Source: an uncultured Planctomycetales bacterium (lineage in GTDB: Bacteria; Omnitrophota; Gorgyraeia; Zapsychrales; JANLHA01). From it: a stretch of 64,000 nucleotides of DNA. The stretch is from the NCBI GenBank assembly GCA_964489065.1, contig CAZAXH010000002.1, positions 120,099 through 184,098 on the forward strand, written 5' to 3'. This document shows, one piece after another, positions 4,731-42,678 of the stretch. Position numbers and translations under genes: made by a program. The notes beneath the pieces are model-generated. The model was not told the origin of the DNA and ran no database searches. It was given only the letters and a program-made list of their open reading frames with translations. The first letter of the stretch is position 1, and each line of letters opens with the position of its first letter.

Positions 4731-7163
4731 ATGTTTAATAGATTTACTGAAAGAGCGAGGAAAGTGATCGTATATGCCAAGGAGGAGGCCAGGCGTTTTA
4801 ACCATGATTATATCGGCACGGAGCACCTGCTTTTGGGATTGATCCGGGAGGGCGAAGGGGTCGCGGCGGCGGTCCTGCAGAAGCTGGGCCTAGACTTGGA
4901 AACGATCCGTATTGAGGTCGAAAAGCTTGTCCAGCCCGGGCCGCAGACCCAGGTTTTGGGGGATATCCCGTTCACGCCCCGCTCCAAGAAGGCGTTGGAG
5001 CTTTCGGCGGAAGAAGCGCGGGCGCTAGGCCATAATTATATCGGCACGGAACATCTGCTGCTGGGGCTGGTGAAGGAAGGCGAAGGCATGGCTTACCGGG
5101 TTCTTTTGAACCTGGGGCTGGATTTGAGTAAACTGCGCAATGAAATTATGGAGTTGCTCGGCTCCGGGATCCCGGGGTTCAGCGTGCAGGAACAGCAGGG
5201 GAAAGGTGGAAAAACTCCGGCGATTGACGCCTACGGCCGGAATTTGAACCGGCTGGCCAAGGAAGGCAAGCTGGATCCGGTGATCGGACGTTCGGAGGAA
5301 ATTGAGCGGATTGTCCAGATCCTGAGCCGGAGGACTAAGAATAACCCGGTGCTCCTCGGGGAAGCGGGCGTCGGCAAGACCGCTATTGTGGAAGGACTCG
5401 CGCAGTTGATCGTTGCCGGAGATGTCCCGGAGGTGCTGCGGGACAAAAATATCGTGGTCTTGGACCTGGCGCTTATGATTGCGGGGACAAAATATCGCGG
5501 GCAGTTTGAAGAGCGGATCAAGGCGATCATGGATGAAATCAAACGTTCTGGGAAAATTATCCTTTTTGTCGATGAGTTGCATACGCTGGTTGGCGCTGGA
5601 GCGGCGGAGGGCGCTATTGACGCCGCCAATATTTTAAAACCGGCCTTAGCACGGGGAGAAATCCAGTGTATCGGGGCTACCACGCTGGATGAATACCGTA
5701 AACATATCGAGAAAGACGCGGCTCTGGAACGCCGTTTTCAGACGATCCTCGTCAACCCTCCTTCTGTGGATGAAGCGATTCAGATTTTAAAAGGCCTACG
5801 GGACAAGTATGAAGCCCATCACCGGGTCAAATTTTCCGATGAGGCCTTGGGCGCCGCGGTGCGGTTGTCTGACCGTTATATTTCCGGCCGGGCGTTGCCG
5901 GACAAGGCGGTGGATATTTTGGACGAGGCGGGGGCGCGGGCGCGGCTGCACGCCATGGAAGTTCCTCCGGAAATCAAGGATCTGGAGGCGCAGATTGAGC
6001 AGCTGCGCAAGGAAAAGGAAGCGTTTATCAAGAGTCAGGATTTTGAAAAAGCCGCTCATATGAGGGATCAGGAACGGAGCGTGCGCGAAAATCTGGATCG
6101 GGTCCGCGCGGAATGGTCACAGAAACGGGATAACGTAACGATTACCTTGGGAGAGGAAGAAATCGCAAAGGTTATTTCCCAGTGGACCAAGATCCCGCTG
6201 GTTCGGCTTGAGCAGAAGGAAACGGAAAAACTGCTTAGCATGGACAAGCAGCTCAAGAAGACCGTCGTGGGGCAGGAGGAGGCTATTAGCGTGATTTCCC
6301 GGGCGGTTCGACGTTCGCGGGCGGGAATCAAGAATCCCCGTCGGCCGATCGGGTCGTTTGTGTTTTTAGGACCGACCGGGGTGGGGAAGACGCACCTGGC
6401 CCGGGTTTTAACGGAATATATGTTCGGGGACGCCGACGCCCTGATTCAGATCGACATGTCGGAATACATGGACAAGTTCAACGTGTCCCGCCTGATCGGA
6501 GCTCCGCCGGGCTACGTGGGGTATGAAGAAGGGGGGCAGTTGACGGAGAAGGTCCGGCGCAAGCCGTATTCTGTTGTCCTTCTGGATGAGATTGAAAAAG
6601 CGCATCCGGATGTTTTTAACCTCCTTCTTCAGGTGTTTGAGGAGGGCCGGTTGACGGACAGCCTGGGCCGGAAAGTGGATTTTCGCAATACGATTATTAT
6701 TATGACGTCTAATGTCGGGGCGGACATCCTGAGGACCAAAGGCGCCTTAGGTTTCGGCGCCCAGACTGCGGATGCCTCTTATGAGGACATGAAGGCCCGG
6801 CTTCTGGAAGAAGTCAAAAGGGTTTTTAAACCGGAATTTTTGAACCGTATTGACGACATCGTTGTTTTTAGACAATTGACGAAAGAGAACCTAGAGGAAA
6901 TTGTTGATATAGAAATCCGGGAGGTTGCCAAACGATTGCGTGAACAGAATATTTCTCTTGAGTTAAACCGGGAGGCGAAAGATTTCCTCATTGAGAAAGG
7001 TTTTGATCCGGTCTTCGGGGCCCGGCCGTTGAAACGGACGATCCAGCGGTATTTGGAAGACCCCCTTGCGGAAGAAATTATCGCCGGGCAATTTAAAGAA
7101 GGCAGTAAAATTCAAGTTGTTCGTAACAACGATTATCTGCGCTTTGAGTCTTCTGCCTCATAA
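4731..7163 (+). CDS. clpC: ATP-dependent Clp protease ATP-binding subunit ClpC (AAA+ class I)
   Basis: Duplicated Clp N-domain repeats. Two AAA modules ([17 protein letters not shown]) and a UVR-like middle-domain motif. Confidence 0.9.
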
Positions 7164-27861: not shown

Positions 27862-27890
27862 TTGACAAAAACGCATGCGTGGCATATTAT
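27862..27890 (+). promoter_or_regulatory. sigma70-like promoter TTGACA-N17-TATTAT immediately upstream of the DUF134 gene
   Basis: Exact -35 hexamer, 17-nt spacer and near-consensus -10. The -10 ends ~6 nt before the ATG at 27897, implying a leaderless or near-leaderless mRNA. Confidence 0.5.
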
Positions 27891-27896
27891 TGGCAT

Positions 27897-28250
27897 ATGC
27901 TAATAAATAAAACAGTCCGCGGCCGGCCTAAAAAATGCCGGTGCGTTCAAAACGAGCCTAAGGTGCGGTCCTTCAGGCCTTGCGGTGTTCCGTCCGGTGC
28001 CATGGGGGAAGCTATTTTAATCACGGTTGATGAATGCCAGGCGTTGTGTTTTGCCGACCGGCAGGGCCTTTATCAGGTTGAGGCGGCCAAGAAAATGAAC
28101 GTGTCCCGGCAGACGTTTGGCAATATTATCAAGTCCGCCCGCAGAAAAGTGGCAGAAGCGATCCTCTGCGGAAAGCCGCTTCGTATAGGCGGAGGGGCCT
28201 ACGCGGTTTCGGGAATGAAAGAAAAACGCACACCTGCGGGGAGAAAATGA
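27897..28250 (+). CDS. DUF134 (UPF0251) family predicted DNA-binding protein
   Basis: N-terminal RGRPKK...RSFRP and a C-terminal sigma70-region-4-like HTH (VDECQALCFADRQGLYQVEAAKKMNVSRQTFGNIIKSARRKVAEAI). The track's GTG start at 27879 overlaps the promoter -10, so the ATG at 27897 is preferred. Confidence 0.65.
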   Translation: MLINKTVRGRPKKCRCVQNEPKVRSFRPCGVPSGAMGEAILITVDECQALCFADRQGLYQVEAAKKMNVSRQTFGNIIKSARRKVAEAILCGKPLRIGGGAYAVSGMKEKRTPAGRK

Positions 28251-28277
28251 ATCTTTTAATTTTCTGCAAAGGAGGAG

Positions 28278-30788
28278 ATGGGGATGATTGATACACTTAT
28301 TGCCTTTGCCCTTAGAAAGCCCAAGATCATTTTTGCCGTAACCGTTTTGGCGGTCGTGGCGTCTTTGGCGGCGTTCTTCCGGGTTAAGGTGGACACAGAC
28401 CCGGAGAATATGCTCCCGGAGAATGAGTTTGTCCGTGTTTTTAACCACGAGGTAAAAAAAGAATTCACGATCTATGATTATGTCGTCCTGGGGGTCGTCA
28501 ATGAGAAGGATCCGGACGGGGTTTTTAACCCGGCTACTTTAGAGAAGATCTACCGGATTACGGAGGAGATCAAGACTATTGACGGGGTTATCGCCTATGA
28601 GCTGATGAGCCTGGCTAATAAGGATGATATCGAACAGGCCGGCCCGGGGACCCTCAGTTTCCGCTGGCTGATGGGGCCGCCTCCCTACACGGCGGCGGAG
28701 TCTCAACGCATTAAAACGCGCGCCTTGGAAAATCCGATGTTTTACGACACGCTCATTTCGCGCGACGGCAAGGCCCTGTGTATTTATGTCCCTATTCAAG
28801 AGAAGAACATGAGTTACCGCGTCGCCAAGGCCATCCAGAAAATTATTCAAGGGTATCCCGGAGTGGAGCAATATCACCTGACGGGACTACCGCTGGCGGA
28901 GGACGCGTTCGGCGTTGAAATGTTCTGGCAGATGGGGATCTCCGCGCCGCTGGCGGTTTTGGTTATTTTCCTGCTGATGTGGTGGTTTTTCAAACATGTC
29001 ATTCTGGTCCTGATGCCGCTTGTGATGGCCGTTGTCGTGGTCCTGATCACCATGGGGCTTTTGGTCGGTCTGGGTTTCCCGATCCATATTATGAGTTCGA
29101 TGATCCCTATTTTCCTTTTGCCGATTTCCGTGCTGGATTCCATTCACATTTTGAATGAATTCTTTGAGAAGTACCGCACCTTTAAAGACAAGAAAAAAAC
29201 GATTTCCTATGTGCTGCATGAGCTCTACCGCCCGAATCTCTTCACCTCGTTAACGACGGTAGCCGGTTTTTTTTCCCTGTCTTTTGCCCCTATCCCGCCG
29301 GTCCAGGTCTTCGGGATTGCGGTGGCTTTTGGAGTCGCTCTGGCCTGGGTTTTGACTGTTTTGTTGATACCGGCTTATATCGCTCTTCTTGATGAGAGCA
29401 AACTCGGGGATTTTGGCGTGCATGAGGATGATCTTAAGCAAGGCGCATTGAGCCGCGCCCTCGCCGCCTGGGGGAGATTTACAGTCAAACACTGGAAAGA
29501 GGTTTTATCCGGATCGGTGGCCGTTGTGGCCCTGTCCCTTTACGGGATAATGCATATTGAAATCAACGATAATCCGACCAAATGGTTTAATAAGAAGCAT
29601 CCTATCCGGGTCGCGGATAAAGTGCTTAACGACCATTTCGGCGGTGTTTACAGCGTGTACCTGGTCATGGAAGCCAAAGATAAAGAGGCCCAGGTTTTCC
29701 AGGAGCCGGCGATGTTGCGTTATATCGAAGGGCTGCAGCAGTCCCTGCAGGAGAAAGGGACGGTCGGGAAATCAACTTCGCTGGCGGATGTCACGAAAAA
29801 AGTCTATTATGAACTTCTGGGGGGCGATAAAAAGAACAATATAATCCCTCCGACAGCCCCGGCCGTGGCGCAGACGCTTATTTCATTCGAGAATTCGCAT
29901 AAACCCGATGACCTCTGGCATTTTGTCGTCCCCGACTATTCCAAGGCCAACGTGTGGCTTCAGCTGACGTCCGGCGACAATAAACAAATGGCGGCCGTGG
30001 TGAAGCAGGTGGGCGAATACGTCCAGGCGCATCCGGTCCCGTTTGAGGTGACGTACCACTGGGCCGGGCTGACGTATATCAATATGGTCTGGCAGGACAA
30101 AATGGTGGTGGGGATGCTGGTGAATTTCCTGGGAAGTTTTTTAATCGTCCTTTTTATGATGATTGTGCTTTTCAAGTCTCCGGTCACGGGGCTGGTGTCG
30201 ATGCTCCCTCTGACGATCACCATTCTTTTCATTTACAGTTTGCTCGGCTTCACGGGAAAGGAGTATGACATGCCGGTGGCCGTGCTGTCGGCGTTGACGT
30301 TGGGGTTGGCCGTTGATTTTGCCATTCATTTTATTGAGCGCGCCCGCGCCTTTTACGCGGAGAATAAAAACTGGCCCAAAACGGTTGAAGGCATGTTTGG
30401 CGCCCCGGCTAGGGCGTTGATTAAAAACGCGCTGGTGATCTCGATCGGCTTTTTGCCTCTTTTTGCTTCGCCGCTGGTTCCTTATAATACGGTAGGGTTT
30501 TTTATGTTTATGATCATGCTGGTTGCCAGCATCGTTACGCTGATGACCTTGCCGGCGCTTATAACCGGTTTCCCATGGCTTGTGTTTGAAGAAAAGAAGA
30601 CAAAGGCCATCTGTTCGTGCCGGAATTGTGTTTTGATGTCGGGCATTATCGCGGCTACAATAGCATACGTCCTGTTGGGCTACGATCTGGCCCGGCTCAA
30701 TGTCACGACGATTATTTGCGTGACTGTCGTCGTGGTTTTGTCCGGCGTGTGTTCCTTTGTGTCGCGGCAGAAGATGTGCCCAAAATGA
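28278..30788 (+). CDS. MMPL/RND-superfamily exporter (HpnN-like)
   Basis: 836 aa with two 6-TM bundles, each preceded by a large periplasmic loop. RND/MMPL-type TM motifs. Confidence 0.8.
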   Translation: MGMIDTLIAFALRKPKIIFAVTVLAVVASLAAFFRVKVDTDPENMLPENEFVRVFNHEVKKEFTIYDYVVLGVVNEKDPDGVFNPATLEKIYRITEEIKTIDGVIAYELMSLANKDDIEQAGPGTLSFRWLMGPPPYTAAESQRIKTRALENPMFYDTLISRDGKALCIYVPIQEKNMSYRVAKAIQKIIQGYPGVEQYHLTGLPLAEDAFGVEMFWQMGISAPLAVLVIFLLMWWFFKHVILVLMPLVMAVVVVLITMGLLVGLGFPIHIMSSMIPIFLLPISVLDSIHILNEFFEKYRTFKDKKKTISYVLHELYRPNLFTSLTTVAGFFSLSFAPIPPVQVFGIAVAFGVALAWVLTVLLIPAYIALLDESKLGDFGVHEDDLKQGALSRALAAWGRFTVKHWKEVLSGSVAVVALSLYGIMHIEINDNPTKWFNKKHPIRVADKVLNDHFGGVYSVYLVMEAKDKEAQVFQEPAMLRYIEGLQQSLQEKGTVGKSTSLADVTKKVYYELLGGDKKNNIIPPTAPAVAQTLISFENSHKPDDLWHFVVPDYSKANVWLQLTSGDNKQMAAVVKQVGEYVQAHPVPFEVTYHWAGLTYINMVWQDKMVVGMLVNFLGSFLIVLFMMIVLFKSPVTGLVSMLPLTITILFIYSLLGFTGKEYDMPVAVLSALTLGLAVDFAIHFIERARAFYAENKNWPKTVEGMFGAPARALIKNALVISIGFLPLFASPLVPYNTVGFFMFMIMLVASIVTLMTLPALITGFPWLVFEEKKTKAICSCRNCVLMSGIIAATIAYVLLGYDLARLNVTTIICVTVVVVLSGVCSFVSRQKMCPK

Positions 30789-30881
30789 TCCCCGGCCCAT
30801 GGGCCGGAAAGATTCTAGGCGAGGAGTCTGATAAAAATTTCACGAAAGATGTGTGTCGTTGAAAACGGGAAAGGAGGAGAT

Positions 30882-31667
30882 ATGAAAAAGTTTTTTGTCC
30901 TGTTGGTTCTGTGTTTGGTTGCGGGTACCGTGTGGGGCCAGGAACTGACCGTTGATGAGATCATCACCCGGGCGAATAACCGTTCGTATTATCAGGGAAA
31001 GGACGGCAAGTCCAAGGCCATGATGGTGGTCACGGATGCCCAGGGCCGCACCCGCCAGCGTCAGTTGACGATTTTGAAGCTGAATATCCAGGAGGGCGGC
31101 GACCAGAAGTATTTTGTTTATTTCCACAAGCCCAATGACGTTAAAGGCATGAGCTATATCGTCTGGAAACATGCCGGTCAGGATGACGACCGCTGGCTCT
31201 ATCTGCCGGCCATGGACCTGGTGCGCCGGATCGCCGCTTCCGACAAGCGTTCGAGTTTTGCCGGAACGACGTTTTTGTATGAGGACATTTCCGGTCGGGC
31301 CATTGATCTGGACACCCATGAACTGGCCGCCGGCGACACCGAGAATTATGTCATCAAGAATGTGCCCAAGGACGCCGCGGCTGTTGAGTTTTCATATTAT
31401 ATGCTGAAAGTGGACAAAAACACCTTTGTCCCCATGATGGCCGAGTATTACGACAAATCCGGCAAGCTCTACCGCACGATCGAGGCCCTGGAGGTCAAAG
31501 ACATTCAGGATTACCCGACGATCACAAAGATGAAAGCCACGGACTTGAATGCGAATTCCCACACGGTTACGGAATTCAGCGAGGTGACGTACGACGTGGG
31601 GTTAACGGACGATATCTTCACCGAACGGTTCCTGCGCAACCCGCCGCCGCAGTGGCTGAAGGAGTAG
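30882..31667 (+). CDS. LolA-like outer-membrane lipoprotein-sorting family protein
   Basis: Signal peptide, ~260 aa and a beta-rich sequence. Co-located with an MMPL transporter, as is typical for this family. RBS AGGAGG lies before the ATG at 30882. Confidence 0.55.
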   Translation: MKKFFVLLVLCLVAGTVWGQELTVDEIITRANNRSYYQGKDGKSKAMMVVTDAQGRTRQRQLTILKLNIQEGGDQKYFVYFHKPNDVKGMSYIVWKHAGQDDDRWLYLPAMDLVRRIAASDKRSSFAGTTFLYEDISGRAIDLDTHELAAGDTENYVIKNVPKDAAAVEFSYYMLKVDKNTFVPMMAEYYDKSGKLYRTIEALEVKDIQDYPTITKMKATDLNANSHTVTEFSEVTYDVGLTDDIFTERFLRNPPPQWLKE

Positions 31668-31671
31668 CGGG

Positions 31672-32949
31672 ATGCGGCGCGCGGTTTTTATCGGCTTATT
31701 TTTTTTAATTTCCGCCGCCTGCGCGCAGGCGGCGGATCTCCCCGAATGGCACGGGTTCGTCGAGCAGGCATACGGGGGCAGGCTGAGCGATGATTCGCTG
31801 ACCAAGCACGGGGGGTATAACATGCTTGAGCAGCGTCTGCAGTTGAAAACCCGTTACTATATTACCGGGGACAACGCGCTGTCCCGCTGGAACAGCGTGG
31901 TGACGTACAAAGGCGATTTCCTCGTGGATGAGTATTTCGGGGGCAGCGGTTCTTATGAGGTGCGCGAATGCCATTTCGCGTTCCGCCCGGCCAGCCTGAT
32001 CGACGTCAAGGCGGGCCGGCAGGTCTTGACGTGGGGCACGGGGGATTACCTTTTTATCAACGATTTGTTCCCCAAAGATTACGTTTCCTTTTATATCGGC
32101 AGGGATGACGAATATTTAAAGAAACCTTCCGACGCCCTGCGCATATCCGCGTATCCGGCCCTGGCCAATATTGATTTTGTGGTCATCCCCCATTTTACGC
32201 CCAACACCATGCCGGAGGGAGACCGGCTTTCTTTTTTCGACAGTTTTCAGGGAGGAATCGCGGGCCGGGCAAGCGACCGTAACGCCGTCAAACCGGCTTT
32301 TCAGGCGGAGAATACGCAATACGCGCTGCGTGTTTACCGGACCTTCGGCAGCCTGGAAGGCGCGTTGTATTATTACCGCGGCTTTGACCCTTCGCCGCGC
32401 AGTTACCTGGACGAGGCCAACCGGCAGCTTTTTTATGAGCGGCTGGACGCGTACGGTGCGAGCGTCCGGACGCCCTGGGCCGGGGGGATAGGCAGCATGG
32501 AGGTGGGGTATTACCGTTCGCGCCAGGACCCGGACGGGACGAACCGCCTTATCGAGAATTCCATGTTCAAGGGAATGGCCGGATATGAAAAAGATCTGGG
32601 GAATGATCTTAAAATCGGGGGGCAATATCTATATGAGCAAAAGCTCGATTACTCCGCGTATAAGGCCGCGCTTCTTCCCTACGACTATTTTTGGGATGAA
32701 CGCCGGCATCTCCTGACCCAGCGGGTGATCAAATTTTATAAGAACCAGACCGTGATGCTGGGGCTTTTTAATTTTTGGTCGCCGTCGGACAGAGACGGGT
32801 ATGTCCGGGTGTCATGCGCTTATGACATATCCGATCAATGGAAGCTGGTGGCCGGGGTCAATATCCCGTGGGGGGAGGATAGGATCACGGATTTCGGCAT
32901 GATGGAAAAAAATAAGAACGCGTTTGTGCGGGTGCGCTATAGTTTTTAA
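31672..32949 (+). CDS. putative outer-membrane beta-barrel protein (DUF1302-like)
   Basis: Signal peptide (AACAQA), alternating beta-strand pattern and a C-terminal aromatic residue (...VRYSF). Its gene neighbourhood is with the MMPL and LolA-like genes. Confidence 0.4.
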   Translation: MRRAVFIGLFFLISAACAQAADLPEWHGFVEQAYGGRLSDDSLTKHGGYNMLEQRLQLKTRYYITGDNALSRWNSVVTYKGDFLVDEYFGGSGSYEVRECHFAFRPASLIDVKAGRQVLTWGTGDYLFINDLFPKDYVSFYIGRDDEYLKKPSDALRISAYPALANIDFVVIPHFTPNTMPEGDRLSFFDSFQGGIAGRASDRNAVKPAFQAENTQYALRVYRTFGSLEGALYYYRGFDPSPRSYLDEANRQLFYERLDAYGASVRTPWAGGIGSMEVGYYRSRQDPDGTNRLIENSMFKGMAGYEKDLGNDLKIGGQYLYEQKLDYSAYKAALLPYDYFWDERRHLLTQRVIKFYKNQTVMLGLFNFWSPSDRDGYVRVSCAYDISDQWKLVAGVNIPWGEDRITDFGMMEKNKNAFVRVRYSF

Positions 32950-32953
32950 TCTC

Positions 32954-32980
32954 CGCGGGAATTTCCCGCCTTTATTTAAG
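32954..32980 (+). terminator. rho-independent terminator after the outer-membrane protein gene
   Basis: GC stem GCGGG/CCCGC with a short loop, followed by CTTTATTT. Confidence 0.5.
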
Positions 32981-33139: not shown

Positions 33140-33322
33140 ATGGAAAGAGCATTGAGGGGGATCGCCGGTTTTGCTGTTATGTTAAGCGTGCTTCTCGCGC
33201 ATTATGTTGACGAACGCTGGCTGTGGTTCACCGTTTTTGTGGGACTTAATCTTTTTCAGTCGGCGTTTACGAACTGGTGCCCGATGATGGTGATTTTTAG
33301 GAAATGCGGTATGAAAAAATAA
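33140..33322 (+). CDS. DUF2892 (YgaP-like) small membrane protein
   Basis: Two TM helices and a conserved NWCP motif. Confidence 0.55.
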   Translation: MERALRGIAGFAVMLSVLLAHYVDERWLWFTVFVGLNLFQSAFTNWCPMMVIFRKCGMKK

Positions 33323-36519: not shown

Positions 36520-39500
36520 ATGATGAGTTATTTCCGGAATTGCCGTAACCAGTGGTCTTACAAACTTCTTGTGTCATTTGTCAGTTATTCTTTTGTGGCG
36601 GGACTGATCCTGCCTCCTGTGACGCTTTTGGCCGCTGAACCTCAAAAAGGGATTCTCGGCCTGCCGATGCCCGGGTCAATGGTGCTGAAAAGCGACGTTT
36701 ACACCCCGGCATGCCTGAAAGGCATTAAGATTGACCCGCAGAATCCTTTGAAATTTGATTTTATTATTGATTCCGGCAAAGACGAGTTGACAGGGCAGGC
36801 CCTGGAAGAAGAGGCTAGCAAGCTGATTAAATATTTTTTGGCGACCCTGACGATTCCCGAAGAAGACCTGTGGGTGAACCTTTCCCCATATGAAAGCGAC
36901 CGGATCATCCCTGAAGGCTTTGGCCTTACGGAGATGGGCCGGGACCTTCTGTCCCAGGATTACATGCTCAAACAGCTTGTGGCGTCTTTGATTTATCCGG
37001 AACAGGATTTGGGGCAGGAATTCTGGCAAAGAGTGTATGACCGCGCGGCCAAGGAGTACGGCACAACCAATATCCCGATCAACACGTTCAATAAAGTGTG
37101 GATCATTCCGGAGGACGCTTTGGTCGTCGAGCATAACGGCAGCGCTTTTGTCGTGGACAGCCATTTGAAGGTGATGCTGGAAGAAGACTATCTCGCTTTG
37201 GAAAAGAATCTGGCCAATCAGAAACTCGGCACGACCAAGATCACCGAGGATTACGTGAAAACGTTAAGCAAGGTCTCTTCGGATGTGGTCCGGGAAATCC
37301 TTCTCCCGGAGATTGAAAAAGAAGTGAACGAGGGGAAAAATTTCGCCAAGCTCCGGCAGATCTATAATTCCATGATTTTGGCCACCTGGTATAAACAGAA
37401 CCTGCGGGCGACTCTCCTGGGCCAGGTGTATGTGAATAAAGGGAAAATCAAAGGGGTGGATGTTGATGACCGGGAGATAAAACAAAAGATTTATGAGCAG
37501 TATCTGGAAGCCTTCCGGAAAGGTGTTTATAACTATATCCGGGAAGATTATGACCTGGCGTCGAAACAGGTCATCCCCCGGAAATATTTTTCCGGCGGTT
37601 TTGACGCGTCTGCCATGTCCAGCGCGGTCCGGGCCGTGGATCTTCAGGATATCCCGCTGTCGTCTCCTTTGCGGGCGAGGGTGGATCAGGGCTTGAACAT
37701 TTCCAGCCCTGTGGTTCAGGTATCGGCGATTCTGGCGGAAAACCCTTCAGAAACCTTGGCGGCAAAGGGGGTTGTTACGGCAGAGGACATTACAACCCCG
37801 GTTGTGGTGGCTTCACCGGTCGTGGTTTCCCCGGAAATTTTGAAATTGTACCAGGGTGATATTGAGGAGTTGCAGCGTGTCGCTTTTGATTACGGCGACA
37901 GATCTTTTATCGCGGATGAGAACCGGGCGGTTGCCAAGAGTGAACTGGCCCGGGAGAGAAGAATTCAAGGACTGCTTCTTTTGGCTAGCCGGAACGCTTT
38001 GCCGTTTGAGATCGCGGAAAAGACCGGGACCCATTTGACGGATCTGGTGAATGTGGCGAATGAAATAGTCTCCGAGGGGTATAGTGAGCGGTTATCCCAG
38101 GCGTTGACCGAGGCCGAAAATGCACTTTTGCAAAATTTGAACGAAACGGAACTTACTGTTTTGTACCAGGCGGCTTTATCATCTCCGATCGCGGCAGGCA
38201 CAAGCCGGTTTCAGGATCTTAGTCCCTTCGGCCAGCAGTACGCGGAGTTGCGGGTTCGTCATTACCTCGGGTATGTGGTGGGGTCGCAGGGAAGAGGCGG
38301 GGTGACTGAGGCGCAGGCTGCGGCATTCCTGTCAAGGCTCAATGCGGATATATCACGCATGGTTCAGGCAGGTCGCACTTTAAAAGAAATCGGCGAGCAC
38401 TATTTCCCAGAATTGAGCGACGAAACCCGGGCCTTTGTTGAACATTCCCGGACCCAATATGAATTGAACAGAAAATCCAACGCCAGAGTCATGGCCGATG
38501 TCCTGATCGCGTCTTTGTCGGCTTCCGAAACGGACCGCTATGACAGGGCGACGATAAAAGCGGAACCGATAACTTTTCCTTCACGCTGGCCGCAACTGGA
38601 TGTTTTCAACGCTTTGGAAAGAATCGTGCGGGAGCGGGGCCAGGTGCTCGTCAGCCCTTCGTCGCCGGTTTCGCAGCAGTTTGCGCAGCTGTCGACTGAT
38701 GAAGTTGTGGGGGACCTAGCACGCAATTTCGGGCAATCATATGACACGATGATTTCTTTGGTGCCTTTTTTGGCAGAGACCACGGGGGTGTCGGAAGAGA
38801 GGATCCTGCGGGAGCTCAATGATGACACGTACAAGGTTTTTGCCAATCAGTTGTCCCAGATCTCGGAGATGGTCAAAGCCCGGGAGATTTTCCCGGAACA
38901 GGTGACTGTGCGGGTTTCTATGGAAGAGCCGGAGCAGGCGCCGATACAACTGGCGGGAGAGAGGACGGTCCCGAATGTCTTGTTCTGGCCCATGAAAGGC
39001 GACCCGTGGCAGTCCGGGCACATCTGGATGATCTTGGAAGCGATCATCAAGAACAAGATCGATAAGGTTGTGATCATGATCGACAACAGCGATCCGACCC
39101 GGAAACCGGATTTAAGTTCGTTGACGATCCGGGAGGCGTTTTCCCGGGTGATTTTTGACAAGTATTTAAAGCCGTTCGTCCAGTACACCACGCTCCCTAA
39201 AGAGATGCTGGAATTGTTTTCCGCGGATGGCGAAACGGTGATTTTTTATTTCGCGGAACTTAACGCGAACCAGCCCATGAACCTGTTTTACGGCGCGGGG
39301 TCGGACCACGCGAATTTGTATGCCCTGAAGAAGTCGGTAATTACGTCAGGCGATTTTACGAGCACGATCGCGGGGATCGAAAACGCGGCGGAGCGCCAGC
39401 GGATTCAGCAGATGTTTGCCAACGCGGGCTATATTGATGAACAAGGGCGGCCGATAACACAGGCGTTTGATTTCCTGGTCGAACGGTTGAAAGAACGGGG

Positions 39501-42500
39501 ATACCTGGATGAGAAAGGCAAACCGGTGAGCGGGAAGTTTACCGCCTATTATGAGGAAGGCAGGCCGGAAGAACTGTTGTTGAGCGATCTGCAAGATACA
39601 GGTTTGGAAACGGAAGACGCCCGGAGGATCGTGTATCAGGCGCTGTTCGCCCCGGATGTCCCGCGGAAGATTTATAACAAAATGACGGCCGGAGAACAGG
39701 GCTTAAGAGGGTTCCAGACCCGAAAAGATATCCAGAAGATGAACATTGTTTTCAGTCAGCGTCCGGGGGAAGGAATTGATGAGAAACTCCTTAAAGCGTA
39801 TGAGGAGAAGCTGGCGGTGGAGTTAAACGCGCGGGGATTGCCAAGGCTGGGCTTGTCAACCATTTTCCAGCCGATAGACGCGTCATCCACCGATGTGCGC
39901 AAGCGCGGGCAGTTCTGGAAGGTGCCATGGGTATCGCTGCAGGTGGCGAACGCGTTTAAGATGTGGGGGTATGAAATGGATGGGAACAGTTCCCAACAGG
40001 AAGGGCGGGCGGCGAATTTGAGGCAAATCGCGTCCCGAGTCCTGGCCGGTGACCTTAGCGAGGAAGCGCGGAGAGCCGCTTTGGATCAGATCCGGATGGC
40101 TGTGAGCGCGTTAAATGGGTTGGGTTTGGACGCTTTTGACAAATATGTCATGGGCGAGATTATAAAGGTAGAGGCTGCCTTAAGGACGCCGGCCGGCGAG
40201 CAGGAAATGGCGCGGTTGGAAGTTGTCGATGCCTGGCTGAAACAAGTACGGGGACTGATTTTCGCGCAGGCACAAACCCTGGCGGAGCAGGCCATGGATA
40301 ACCCTCTCCCCATCCGGCGGCAAGACCAGCAAAGGATGAGGGATTTACTGGTGGGCGGGCGGGTGGTGCCTCCTGCGGTGGTGAGGGAGTATTATCAGAC
40401 CCGTAGCCAGCGGGGCCTGTCGCTTGAGCCGGAGGCGATGGCCGTCGAGTTGGGGGTGACCCCGGCTCTCATCAGGGCCACTATGTCCTCTCCGGTCGTT
40501 AAAAAGATCCTTGTCGTGGATGACACGGAAGAAGTGAGGGATTTGAACAGGGATATTTTTAGTACCATCTTCTCCGGGGCGGAAGTTATCACGGCCGTGA
40601 ACGGCGAAGAAGGGTTGAGGACGTTCCGGGAGAATCCGGATATAGATCTCGTGGTTACCGATCTTGAAATGCCGGTGATGAACGGGGAGCAGATGGCCCG
40701 AACGATCCATTCCGAGCGTGGTGGTGTGCCGGTGGTCCTGGTTTCCGGGAATAACACAGAAGTGCAGCGGCTGTCCAAAGTGGATGAGGCCTCGGGATTG
40801 AAAAGCGGTCTTTTCACCGAAGTGATTCAGAAACCGTATCAGCTTAAGGCGATTATTGATTTAAAAGCCAGGTTGTCTTCTTCCCCTATTGTTAATAAGA
40901 TTTTGGTCGTGGATGATGTTGCCGGTATTAGAATGCTGTTGCAGGATGAATTGGGCGATATCTTTACCGAGGCTGAAATCATTACCGCTGCCAACGGGGA
41001 AGAAGGGTTGAAGATGTTCCGGGAGAACCCGGATATAGGCCTGGTTGTGACCGACCTGCAAATGCCGGTGATGAACGGGGAAGAGATGGCCAAAACGATC
41101 CGTTCTGAGCGTGATGTGCCGGTCGTTCTGATGACAGCCAACAGCCAGGAGATGACGCGGTTATCCGTCGTTGATGAGACATCGGGATTGAAGAGCGGGC
41201 TTTTTATGGATGTGATTGAAAAGCCTTACAGCTCTGACGCGATCACGGCTTTAAAAGATCAATTGTCCGTGTCGTCTCCGATTCAAAATAAAATTACCCT
41301 TACCGCGGAAGATATGGACGTCATCGGGAATATCCTGGATATTGACCGGGAAGTTTACGGGGATCAGGACGCCTGGGCTTATGCGGCGATCCGGGTTTTG
41401 CTGGCCAATCAGCTTCAGTATCCGGAGGCCATGCCGCCGTTAAGGCAGTCGGCCAGAATTTTAGGCATCAAATGGCAGGATGGAGCTTATCCGATAGAAG
41501 ACGCCATGTTCAGGCTGCTTCCGGCCAGTTTGGCGGTCGGTTATAATCTGCGGGATGTCAATGCGTACCGGACATTAAAAGAAGCCATTGATCTGGAACG
41601 GGCCGGTCAATTCGGCGATGCGGAGAATAAACTGGCCGAAATCGAAGGGGTTGATAATCAGAAGGCGGATCAGATATTGAAAATGGCGGCGGCGGTCTTT
41701 AATAATTCCGTCGCGTTATCCATTGACAATGACCTTGATCTGCAGATGACCATGCTGGGGGCCGGACGGGCGGAAAGAATGCCCCTCGTGGACTTCGTCG
41801 CCATTTCCCGCACGGCTCCGTTGCAGCTGACGGCGGAGAATAAAGAGAGGCTGAATGTCCTTCTCAACGAGGCCGAAACGGTTCTGCAGCGGGTGGAGAT
41901 TGAAACGGTTGAAGACCGTGTCGTCCTGGAGCAAATCCGTAAGGACGTGACGGGTATTTTAGAAGAAGCCGGCGCGATCTTTTCAACGTTCGCGCTTGAG
42001 GAGGAATTGAGAAAATCCACTCCGGCCGAGGAAGCGGTGCGGTTGCAGCAGGTCATAACTACGATGGCGGAGATTGAAGCCAAGCTGGGGCCTTCTCCGG
42101 CGGCGGATCTGGCCTCGGAGGAAGAGGTCTCTTCTCCGGTCCAGGTGGTGGAAAAAACAATGGATAAATTCCGGCTGCAGAACCGCGCCACCAGGGAGTT
42201 ATTAGACGGATTTGTCAACGGCTCGATTGAGAGAAACACCGCTGGCCGGGAGCTCAACCGGCTGCTTCGGACGGAAAGACAGGCTCGGGGCGTTTCCTCG
42301 GGAGGGGTGCTCAATTTCGCGCAGCGGTTGAATGGCCAATTAGAAGCGCAATCATCGCCCCTCGGCGGTATCAACCTGAACCCGGCTTTGTTAAACTTGC
42401 AGATCAAACGGGACAATAACGGCGTGCCGCTGCCTTTGCCGCAGCAGCCTGTCGGGGATATGAATATTGACGGATTTGTGCCGGTCATCATCAATATTAC

Positions 42501-42678
42501 GCCTATCCCGAATCTGCCGATGCTGCTGGGCAGAAACCTGGGGGACGCCCCGGCGCAGGGTGTTCCGGCTGCGGAGAAAGAAGGCCATAAGCAGGGACCG
42601 TCTCAACCATCGGAAAAAACAGGCGTCCAGTTTTTCTTTGATGATAAAGATCAGTTGAGCTTGTTGAATTACAATTAA
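36520..42678 (+). CDS. giant multidomain protein: signal/anchor, helical regions, divergent HxGH-type nucleotidyltransferase-like segment and tandem REC receiver domains
   Basis: Uninterrupted 2052-codon ORF with RBS GGGAGG 7 nt upstream. Hydrophobic N-terminus. Central FWPMKGDPWQSGH...TSTIAG resembles the cytidylyltransferase/NadD motifs (FDPxHxGH, ISSTxIR). Two REC domains carry canonical DD, D, S/T and K positions (ILVVDD...VVTDLEMPVMNG...VLVSG...QKPY). Confidence 0.85.
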   Translation: MMSYFRNCRNQWSYKLLVSFVSYSFVAGLILPPVTLLAAEPQKGILGLPMPGSMVLKSDVYTPACLKGIKIDPQNPLKFDFIIDSGKDELTGQALEEEASKLIKYFLATLTIPEEDLWVNLSPYESDRIIPEGFGLTEMGRDLLSQDYMLKQLVASLIYPEQDLGQEFWQRVYDRAAKEYGTTNIPINTFNKVWIIPEDALVVEHNGSAFVVDSHLKVMLEEDYLALEKNLANQKLGTTKITEDYVKTLSKVSSDVVREILLPEIEKEVNEGKNFAKLRQIYNSMILATWYKQNLRATLLGQVYVNKGKIKGVDVDDREIKQKIYEQYLEAFRKGVYNYIREDYDLASKQVIPRKYFSGGFDASAMSSAVRAVDLQDIPLSSPLRARVDQGLNISSPVVQVSAILAENPSETLAAKGVVTAEDITTPVVVASPVVVSPEILKLYQGDIEELQRVAFDYGDRSFIADENRAVAKSELARERRIQGLLLLASRNALPFEIAEKTGTHLTDLVNVANEIVSEGYSERLSQALTEAENALLQNLNETELTVLYQAALSSPIAAGTSRFQDLSPFGQQYAELRVRHYLGYVVGSQGRGGVTEAQAAAFLSRLNADISRMVQAGRTLKEIGEHYFPELSDETRAFVEHSRTQYELNRKSNARVMADVLIASLSASETDRYDRATIKAEPITFPSRWPQLDVFNALERIVRERGQVLVSPSSPVSQQFAQLSTDEVVGDLARNFGQSYDTMISLVPFLAETTGVSEERILRELNDDTYKVFANQLSQISEMVKAREIFPEQVTVRVSMEEPEQAPIQLAGERTVPNVLFWPMKGDPWQSGHIWMILEAIIKNKIDKVVIMIDNSDPTRKPDLSSLTIREAFSRVIFDKYLKPFVQYTTLPKEMLELFSADGETVIFYFAELNANQPMNLFYGAGSDHANLYALKKSVITSGDFTSTIAGIENAAERQRIQQMFANAGYIDEQGRPITQAFDFLVERLKERGYLDEKGKPVSGKFTAYYEEGRPEELLLSDLQDTGLETEDARRIVYQALFAPDVPRKIYNKMTAGEQGLRGFQTRKDIQKMNIVFSQRPGEGIDEKLLKAYEEKLAVELNARGLPRLGLSTIFQPIDASSTDVRKRGQFWKVPWVSLQVANAFKMWGYEMDGNSSQQEGRAANLRQIASRVLAGDLSEEARRAALDQIRMAVSALNGLGLDAFDKYVMGEIIKVEAALRTPAGEQEMARLEVVDAWLKQVRGLIFAQAQTLAEQAMDNPLPIRRQDQQRMRDLLVGGRVVPPAVVREYYQTRSQRGLSLEPEAMAVELGVTPALIRATMSSPVVKKILVVDDTEEVRDLNRDIFSTIFSGAEVITAVNGEEGLRTFRENPDIDLVVTDLEMPVMNGEQMARTIHSERGGVPVVLVSGNNTEVQRLSKVDEASGLKSGLFTEVIQKPYQLKAIIDLKARLSSSPIVNKILVVDDVAGIRMLLQDELGDIFTEAEIITAANGEEGLKMFRENPDIGLVVTDLQMPVMNGEEMAKTIRSERDVPVVLMTANSQEMTRLSVVDETSGLKSGLFMDVIEKPYSSDAITALKDQLSVSSPIQNKITLTAEDMDVIGNILDIDREVYGDQDAWAYAAIRVLLANQLQYPEAMPPLRQSARILGIKWQDGAYPIEDAMFRLLPASLAVGYNLRDVNAYRTLKEAIDLERAGQFGDAENKLAEIEGVDNQKADQILKMAAAVFNNSVALSIDNDLDLQMTMLGAGRAERMPLVDFVAISRTAPLQLTAENKERLNVLLNEAETVLQRVEIETVEDRVVLEQIRKDVTGILEEAGAIFSTFALEEELRKSTPAEEAVRLQQVITTMAEIEAKLGPSPAADLASEEEVSSPVQVVEKTMDKFRLQNRATRELLDGFVNGSIERNTAGRELNRLLRTERQARGVSSGGVLNFAQRLNGQLEAQSSPLGGINLNPALLNLQIKRDNNGVPLPLPQQPVGDMNIDGFVPVIINITPIPNLPMLLGRNLGDAPAQGVPAAEKEGHKQGPSQPSEKTGVQFFFDDKDQLSLLNYN
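40498..41280 (+). repeat. tandem in-frame duplication (~390 bp unit) encoding the two REC domains of the giant ORF
   Basis: Two consecutive units translate to near-identical receiver domains (KKILVVDDTEEV... vs NKILVVDDVAGI...). The mirrored spurious antisense ORFs at 40395..40817 and 40839..41141 reflect the DNA-level repeat. Confidence 0.7.

Follow-up and report, generated by a model that had tools for sequence, protein, structure and literature searches.

A palindrome joining the -10 element and the start codon of a DUF134 gene ahead of an Omnitrophota exporter operon: a candidate operator for the DUF134 family

Introduction

What is a DUF134 gene doing at the head of an envelope exporter operon, and why does its promoter end only 6 nt before its start codon? 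These questions are raised by a 64,000-nt stretch of contig CAZAXH010000002.1 (GCA_964489065.1) from an uncultured Omnitrophota bacterium, which is the whole of the DNA analysed here and is called the window below; its closest homologues in databases are named Candidatus Omnitrophota. A preliminary description made from the sequence alone reported a module at positions 27862-32949, in which a DUF134/UPF0251 gene is followed, tightly and on the same strand, by genes for an MMPL/RND pump, a LolA-like protein and an outer-membrane barrel. Coordinates and Pfam matches agree with this, and all four open reading frames (ORFs) lie on the + strand where they had been placed. What the description missed is that the -10 element and the ATG are joined by a palindrome. 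We propose that this palindrome, which recurs across phyla, is very likely the DUF134 operator, and we regard this as the most valuable result of the study; the linkage of DUF134 to the exporter, in turn, is probably a lineage-specific displacement of an ArsR-family regulator. The features of the locus are as follows.

27862..27867, + strand: -35 hexamer TTGACA (promoter scan)
27885..27890, + strand: -10 hexamer TATTAT, overlapping the left arm of the palindrome
27887..27906, no strand: 20-bp palindrome TTATTGGCAT-ATGCTAATAA, putative DUF134 operator, symmetric at 19 of 20 positions
27897..28250, + strand: DUF134/UPF0251 regulator, 117 aa (PF02001), predicted leaderless, starting at the central ATG of the palindrome
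28284..30788, + strand: inner-membrane MMPL/HAE3-type RND pump, 834 aa (PF03176); the alternative ATG at 28278 gives 836 aa
30882..31667, + strand: periplasmic LolA-like (TP_0789-like) protein, 261 aa, with signal peptide (PF17131)
31672..32949, + strand: outer-membrane beta-barrel, 425 aa, with signal peptide and C-terminal Phe; distant short DUF1302 relative
32955..32979, + strand: terminator-like hairpin GCGGGAATTTCCCGC, then a T-rich tail (terminator scan, sequence)
33140..33322, + strand: small YgaP-like membrane protein (PF11127, E 4e-14), conserved downstream neighbour

Results

A palindrome spans the promoter and the start of the DUF134 gene

The promoter TTGACA(27862)-17-TATTAT(27890) matches at 11 of 12 positions and is the best + strand site that the promoter scan found in 9 kb. 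The palindrome spans its -10, the predicted transcription start and codons 1-4 of DUF134, and the odd geometry of -10 and ATG arises because the two are the arms of TTATTGGCAT-ATGCCAATAA. Positions 27887-27906 match the proposed family palindrome TTATnnnCATATGnnnATAA at 19 of 20 positions, and this is the sole match in the window at up to four mismatches (shuffled window: 0.02 matches). Related loci were gathered by a barrel-alignment scan with one genome per species and are the best 80 of at least 579 confirmed matches; they were annotated by tblastn and a DUF134 hidden Markov model. Throughout the 1.36 Mb made up by the window and related loci, matches with four or fewer mismatches occur only at DUF134 starts, bar one four-mismatch site in locus L026. 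A perfect copy is present in L073, where the DUF134 gene is not beside a pump and has its own Shine-Dalgarno sequence and a later ATG.

The association extends well beyond the exporter. Searching a metagenome collection with the exact palindrome TTATTRGCATATGCYAATAA returned at least 120 contigs, where only a few would be expected by chance (a rough figure, which assumes a collection of ~10^12 bases, its size not being known). On 101 of the 120 contigs listed a DUF134 ORF starts beside the palindrome, and most of the others have the site at the contig end. Among the hosts are Omnitrophota and a species of Chlorobium, and one contig comes from a human gut metagenome. Of the 94 distinct palindrome sites from the metagenome matches listed, 62 have TATTAT over the left arm and 43 have a perfect TTGACA at a distance of 16-18 nt upstream of the -10; 87 have a start codon downstream, most often 15 nt after the palindrome, and in 60 of these 87 a Shine-Dalgarno-like sequence lies ahead of the start codon. 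The usual layout of the family is thus a promoter, an operator over the -10 and the start site, a leader of ~25 nt and a protein beginning M-P-R-P.

The search above was keyed on the motif, whereas four further DUF134 loci were fetched by protein identity, independently of it. All four have variant palindromes at the same place: TTGTTAGCATATGCCAATAA in L207, TTATGGGCAAATGCCTATAA in L208, TAATGAGCATATGCTTAAAA in L209 and TTATGAGCATATGCTTATAA in L210. In addition, second DUF134 paralogues on the same contigs have TTATGCACATATGTGCATAA or TTATGAAC(A/G)TA(C/T)GTTCATAA. A second paralogue family (L101:8156-8461, L125:5077-5382, L121:8604-8912, L134:8107-8412 and L161:9013-9258), whose proteins begin MRPKKTRW and end in GGCC, differs in its recognition helix and has perfect palindromes of its own, TTATGCACATATGTGCATAA or TTATGAACATACGTTCATAA.

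The operator core co-varies with the recognition helix of the DUF134 protein beside it: T(G/A)GCAT pairs with SRQTFGNII, GAGCAT with SRQTFGRIL, GCACAT with HRSTV(S/A)RI and GAAC(A/G)T with SRPTFSRIL. Selection on the DNA itself is also visible within the coding region, where all 16 loci examined have CTA or CCA as their second codon. In the window 1.5% of the Leu codons are CTA and 4.9% of the Pro codons are CCA, and the fixation of such rare codons indicates that the constraint acts on DNA.

The exact palindrome also lies upstream of genes other than DUF134, encoding a TrpB-like protein, Mrp/NBP35 ATPases, NifX-like proteins and a DsrE-like protein (L111:3749, L181:6398, L133:2964, L198:11699 and L128:526). 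Since Mrp/NBP35, NifX-like and DsrE-like genes are usual neighbours of DUF134, these sites fit a regulon, of which the genes behind them are candidate members. On sequence grounds, we consider that the palindrome is most likely the autoregulatory operator of DUF134, and that it is the first candidate DNA-binding site for the whole family. The presence of TTATnnnCATATGnnnATAA over a gene's own -10 as a hallmark of DUF134 is a feature proposed here and not an established one. A search of the openly accessible literature found no description of the palindrome, and its core sequences matched only unrelated items such as EBNA1 sites and primers.

The DUF134 protein

The window protein matches PF02001 at 76.4 bits (cutoff 27, E 2.7e-21) over 93 of 98 profile positions. 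It reaches 62.5 bits against the NCBIfam equivalog PRK04217, below the cutoff of 115, and by these scores is a member of the DUF134 family but not a PRK04217 equivalog. The RGRPKK motif and sigma-region-4-like helix-turn-helix (HTH) of the preliminary description are borne out: the motif occupies residues 9-14, and the AF2 model, which is confident for residues 40-100, has a sigma-70 region-4-like HTH at 44-91 with pLDDT >90. Over ~46 residues its three helices superpose at 0.7-1.0 A on the sigma-70 region 4 found in ECF sigma factors. A PDB sequence search with DUF134 gave no match even at E<=1. The N-terminal RGRPKK arm resembles an AT-hook and, we speculate, might touch the site in its outer, AT-rich stretches.

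Proteins of the pump-linked clade carry Cys14, Cys16, Cys47, Cys51 and Cys90, of which Cys47, Cys51 and Cys90 are missing from the other DUF134 proteins in the alignment. This clade-specific set hints at thiol- or metal-based sensing, which would be in keeping with a successor to ArsR regulators that themselves contain Cys. In the openly accessible full texts searched, DUF134/UPF0251 (COG1342) appears in three passing mentions only, with no function.

The DUF134 mRNA is predicted to be leaderless

The arrangement of -35, -10 and ATG is not due to chance, for 15 distinct orthologous loci share it although they differ in their spacers and in the DNA upstream. This bears out the TTGACA-N17-TATTAT promoter of the preliminary description, with its -10 ending 6 nt before the ATG. 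Across the 15 aligned upstream regions TTGACA-N16/17-TATTAT-T(G/A)GCAT-ATG-C(T/C)A is almost invariant, and the -35 is kept as TTGACA in nearly all, one having TCGACA. Because the -10 ends 6 nt before ATG 27897, no Shine-Dalgarno sequence (GGAGG) lies ahead of it, and there is no other in-frame start ahead of the conserved RGRP-KCRC motif, the promoter geometry implies that the DUF134 mRNA would be leaderless, starting at the A of the central ATG. DUF134 orthologues of 107-117 aa align from this ATG, and gene callers agree on 117 aa. The central-ATG start is limited to the Omnitrophota pump-linked type, namely the 15 loci and L152. Seen against the leadered layout that prevails in the family, the leaderless state appears to be derived from a leadered ancestor, having arisen because the operator happens to have an ATG at its centre.

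DUF134 stands in the position of ArsR in one sub-clade

The best 80 loci are almost all metagenome-assembled genomes of Omnitrophota and include the complete genome of Ca. Velamenicoccus archaeovorus. The pump/LolA-like/barrel trio occurs in every related locus with enough sequence, and in most of the 80 the gene next after that of the barrel is YgaP-like (PF11127). DUF134 lies directly upstream only where the pump is at least 77% identical to that of the window. These are ~15 distinct loci with unrelated flanks, for instance Fur and ZnuABC in L005 and other genes in L004, and all keep the order DUF134-(GCAxxG)-MMPL-LolA-like-barrel; a C_GCAxxG_C_C gene stands between DUF134 and pump in most of them, and the lineage of the window is without it. 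The DUF134 gene of L022 (6079-6359) has an apparent internal deletion after RGR, and is either a pseudogene or an assembly error.

In other clades, comprising 37 loci with pump identities of 35-76%, an ArsR-family gene (PF01022) is located upstream on the same strand, at a gap of 3-81 nt from the pump in nearly all. Since DUF134 is found in one sub-clade only and ArsR in the same position elsewhere, the ArsR arrangement is probably ancestral and was displaced by DUF134. The preliminary description had called for a check of whether DUF134 and the transporter are conserved neighbours; they are, and in differing contexts, but within a single Omnitrophota sub-clade. ArsR-type loci have TTGACA promoters, palindromes of their own over the -10 and ordinary Shine-Dalgarno leaders (~40-90 nt upstream of the ArsR genes in L028, L032, L046 and L073; also L059, L069 and L078), the palindrome being, for example, ATCGTAATATTACGAT in one ArsR group and AGAATATGCTAATATTCT in another. 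They would appear to follow the same regulatory logic with another factor. By their Cys patterns the ArsR proteins divide into three groups or more, and their PDB matches include SqrR and BigR, of the persulfide-sensing type, but also Rv0081, PagR, NolR and HlyU.

Two further arrangements were observed among the ArsR-type loci. Directly upstream of the pump in L074 (3843-6673), L042, L050 and L057 is a set of ArsR, thioredoxin, DUF302 and CoA-disulfide-reductase-rhodanese fusion genes, which is suggestive of a response to sulfide or persulfide stress. Locus L011 (JAUYCX010000041.1) is a mosaic, with a barrel 79% identical to that of the window, a pump 37% and a LolA-like protein 44% identical, and two ArsR genes upstream; it may reflect recombination between module types.

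The exporter trio and its surroundings

The DUF134 and pump genes are separated by 33 nt (27 nt from ATG 28278) with no terminator between them. Each of the pump, LolA-like and barrel genes has a Shine-Dalgarno sequence (AGGAGG or GGAG) ahead of it, AGGAGG in the case of the pump gene and also of the LolA-like gene, where it lies 5 nt ahead of the ATG. Between the pump and LolA-like genes, which are 93 nt apart, a GC-rich hairpin (CCCCGGCCCATGGGCCGG, 30789-30810) comes immediately after the stop codon of the pump; it may be an mRNA-processing, stability or attenuating element. The hairpin at 32955-32979 is the probable end of the operon. The YgaP-like gene (60 aa) lies behind it, ~190 nt downstream of the barrel gene, and is probably a transcription unit of its own in the window.

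The pump matches PF03176 (MMPL) at 90 bits against a cutoff of 20.5, with additional matches to Patched and sterol-sensing domains, and its best NCBIfam match is TIGR00921 (HAE3), over residues 13-762 at 225 bits against a cutoff of 352. All solved RND proteins are remote from it; MmpL4 and MmpL5 come nearest (E ~1e-7), and HpnN matches at 5e-4. The hydropathy profile, with TM1, a loop at 37-238, a transmembrane cluster at 239-425, a second loop at 426-611 and a second cluster at 612-825, conforms to the RND topology of 12 transmembrane segments with two large periplasmic loops, after TM1 and TM7; hydropathy plotting is crude, however, and the C-terminus may hold two further helices. The LolA-like protein matches PF17131 at 188.6 bits (cutoff 30, E 1e-55) and DUF1329 more weakly. 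Its N-terminus, MKKFFVLLVLCLVAGTVWG-QE, reads by eye as a signal peptide, and its PDB relatives (9tp6, 4z48 and 3bk5) are uncharacterised structural-genomics entries only. The 425-aa protein is predicted to form a large, 18-stranded outer-membrane beta-barrel. The preliminary description had pointed to DUF1302 or DUF1329 for it, and with Pfam profiles a DUF1302 (PF06980) relationship stands in part: the window protein scores 15.5 bits against a cutoff of 23.2, and 26 of 40 barrel orthologues match at E<=0.01 (best 3e-7), so that the barrel appears from these profiles to be a distant, shorter relative of DUF1302.

The flanking genes are of housekeeping type (LptF/G, ComF-like, Maf and M48 peptidase), with a TonB-dependent receptor upstream. 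The receptor was rejected as a member of the module, since its synteny extends no further than the closest relatives, L001-L003. An RNA element at the promoter is likewise not supported: the Rfam scan of 24.5-34.5 kb at E<=1 gave two chance snoRNA-like matches only, none of them at the promoter. Elsewhere in the window, a 2052-aa ORF (36520-42678) has two response-regulator receiver domains near residues 1460-1700, long stretches without a Pfam match and a short motif, SSP(V/I), repeated throughout. GC skew is positive in all 2-kb bins of 1-64000 (+0.05 to +0.20).

Discussion

We suggest that the genes at 27897-32949 would constitute a single operon under the control of the sigma-70-type promoter at 27862-27890. 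DUF134 would be a small dimeric DNA-binding protein that combines an AT-hook-like RGRP arm with a sigma-region-4-like HTH. By binding to TTATTGGCAT-ATGCTAATAA its dimer would block RNA polymerase and repress its own operon until a signal, which may be sensed via the clade-specific Cys residues, releases DUF134. Transcription would begin at the A of ATG 27897 (-1 T, +1 A, 7 nt after the -10), such that DUF134 would be translated from a leaderless 5' end and the pump, carrier and barrel from strong Shine-Dalgarno sites. The pump would then pass a hydrophobic or amphiphilic substrate to the periplasmic LolA-like carrier, and the carrier would pass it to the 18-stranded barrel. We give this joint reading, in which a single operon, self-repression by DUF134 at the palindrome, a leaderless DUF134 mRNA and a trans-envelope conduit go together, a probability of roughly 0.6.

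Several points weigh against it. DNA binding by DUF134, repression and the transcription start are read from sequence, and we likewise infer the transport direction and the substrate of the trio. The metagenome scan, as it was keyed on the exact palindrome, shows that the motif goes with DUF134 and not what fraction of DUF134 genes carries the motif, and there is no recognisable palindrome at four of nine further DUF134 copies. In L007, which belongs to the same clade, a small hydrophobic membrane protein (6000-6350) replaces DUF134 ahead of GCAxxG and the pump. The Foldseek E-values of the DUF134 HTH are weak (~0.1) because the domain is short. Finally, the pump falls below the trusted cutoff of HAE3, and the barrel below that of DUF1302.

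Among the characterised systems that come nearest is AmeABCD, on which the monoterpene tolerance of Castellaniella defragrans depends (PMC6394551). Its components are an outer-membrane protein of the DUF1302 family, a LolA-superfamily protein (DUF1329), a COG4447 protein and a pump of the HAE3 type. It shares with the Omnitrophota trio the combination of an HAE3-type pump, a LolA-superfamily periplasmic protein and a DUF1302-type outer-membrane protein, and a trans-envelope hydrophobic route has been proposed for it. However, its gene order is opposite, running from the barrel AmeA to the pump AmeD rather than pump, carrier, barrel; its carrier (451 aa) and barrel (605 aa) are larger than those found here (261 and 425 aa); and it belongs to a different phylum, whereas the Omnitrophota operon has a regulator of its own and a barrel that fails the DUF1302 cutoff. 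The COG4447/BNR (Ycf48-like, AmeC) gene is absent from the window and from all 80 related loci, and the gaps between pump, carrier and barrel genes in the window, at most ~90 nt, leave no room for a further gene. Price et al. found DUF1302, DUF1329, BNR and COG1033 genes to be cofit and proposed "export of a cell wall component" (10.1101/072470). Their cluster keeps the same three protein types together and is envelope-related, but it is a four-gene cluster of Proteobacteria that includes the BNR propeller and is not headed by a DUF134 or ArsR gene. A literature search on TP0789, or on HAE3 with LolA, gave nothing beyond the AmeABCD paper. From these comparisons, the three-component system conserved across Omnitrophota appears to be a new, compact member of the HAE3 cassettes.

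The preliminary description proposed a hydrophobic, hopanoid- or lipid-like cargo, and its hydrophobic part agrees with what the nearest characterised systems (AmeABCD, DUF1302/DUF1329/COG1033) handle. The hopanoid part finds no support: HpnN models score far below their cutoffs on the pump (TIGR03480, 67 bits against 752; NF052374, 29 against 1100), and the HpnN reading was rejected on these scores. HpnN is a distant RND (HAE3) relative that acts on a hydrophobic membrane lipid, but it works without a co-encoded LolA-like protein or barrel, and there are no hopanoid genes near the Omnitrophota module. A preprint on hopanoid transport reports that squalene-hopene cyclase is poorly conserved in Omnitrophota and gives no link to LolA-like proteins (PMC12324291).

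Instead of inducible efflux, the trio might serve constitutive envelope biogenesis or uptake, such as lipid or lipoprotein traffic or the import of lipids from a host or prey. Its presence in every related Omnitrophota locus with enough sequence, together with the unusual conservation of the barrel (55-87% identity), would fit such a role, as would the lipids or lipoproteins that LolA-fold proteins carry, the Patched and sterol-sensing-like segments of the pump and the export of a cell wall component proposed for the related cassette. However, an apparently autoregulated gene of repressor type, ArsR or DUF134, heads essentially all loci, which is typical of inducible detoxification, and the only genetically tested relative, AmeABCD, gives solvent tolerance. 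Because of this dedicated repressor and this tested relative, we favour inducible efflux, with a hydrophobic or thiol-reactive compound as the cargo, and consider a constitutive role or uptake rather unlikely.

It is also conceivable that the palindrome is real while DUF134 is an activator or sigma-like accessory factor, or that another protein binds the site. The DUF134 HTH does resemble the -35-binding region 4 of sigma factors, and the occurrence of the palindrome ahead of other genes would fit any regulon-type factor. Yet a site over the -10 and the predicted start is in the usual position for repression, and a complete sigma-70 -35/-10 pair is already present. Moreover, DUF134 is the only gene constantly beside the site across phyla, and the co-variation of the operator core is with its recognition helix. 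We consider such alternatives to self-repression by DUF134 quite improbable.

A leadered DUF134 transcript, arising from an upstream promoter, from read-through of the TonB-dependent receptor gene (216 nt upstream on the same strand, with no terminator in between by the scan) or through the GTG 27879 start to which the ORF finder extends the frame, is quite unlikely, since the GTG (rejected here as not conserved in orthologues) and the receptor gene are missing from most orthologous loci while the ATG and the promoter geometry are invariant, the ATG has no Shine-Dalgarno sequence while the other three genes of the operon have AGGAGG or GGAG, and gene callers and orthologue lengths agree on 117 aa.

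Leaderless repressor mRNAs are made from lambda cI, transcribed from PRM, and from tetR of Tn1721. As in the arrangement proposed here, the repressor transcript starts at its own AUG, and its promoter is overlapped by operator sites; the difference is that here the start codon is the centre of the operator, and that the leaderless state would derive from a leadered arrangement. With ArsR/SmtB operons of the YgaV-YgaP, BigR and SqrR type, the locus has in common that ArsR occupies the position of DUF134 in sister clades, with a palindrome over the -10, and that a YgaP-like membrane protein follows the Omnitrophota operon. An upstream ArsR with a downstream YgaP-like gene recalls the E. coli ygaV-ygaP pair. 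DUF134, in contrast, is of an unrelated fold family with a different operator, and its mRNA in the window is predicted to be leaderless.

The canonical DUF134 neighbourhood, in which a Nitro_FeMo-Co NifX-like gene and an Mrp/MinD-Fer4 ATPase gene are found, has the same regulator family, palindrome and promoter layout, and it shares the C_GCAxxG_C_C gene with most of the MMPL-linked loci (L207). It differs in serving metal-cluster proteins rather than an envelope exporter, and the window has lost the leader and gained Cys47, Cys51 and Cys90. In Desulfovibrio vulgaris this neighbourhood probably corresponds to the cluster of "orange protein" (ORP) type (DVU2107). In L210 (1725-4454), the DUF134 and NifX-like genes are immediately preceded by a DUF364 gene and by an ABC importer whose binding protein is of the SBP_bac_11 family; read from its domains, the importer may be of molybdate/tungstate type.

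These comparisons allow a wider scheme, which we offer tentatively and consider possible but rather doubtful. DUF134 proteins might be widespread sigma-region-4-like repressors, mostly of anaerobes, that bind TTATnnnCATATGnnnATAA and control genes of metal-sulfur or redox cofactors (NifX-like, Mrp/MinD-Fer4, DsrE-like and GCAxxG). In one Omnitrophota lineage a Cys-enriched paralogue would then, together with GCAxxG, have displaced a thiol-type ArsR ahead of the exporter found throughout the phylum, turning the central ATG of the operator into a leaderless start. If this were true, the exporter would answer the same kind of signal, namely thiol-reactive, sulfide or metalloid stress, and its cargo would be a hydrophobic sulfur- or metal-related species and not bulk envelope lipid.

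For DUF134/UPF0251, a family that Pfam models and that many metagenome contigs of several phyla encode, the palindrome provides a concrete, testable DNA target. The co-variation of operator and helix is a first step towards a specificity code, while the palindrome and its neighbouring genes yield a predicted regulon; a laboratory test is possible because Chlorobium, one of the host genera, has cultured members. The locus would also record two evolutionary events, the replacement of ArsR by DUF134 before an otherwise unchanged exporter operon and the origin of a leaderless mRNA from a leadered ancestor. The Omnitrophota themselves are very small and often depend on a host, and the substrate of their exporter may be of importance to the biology of their envelope.

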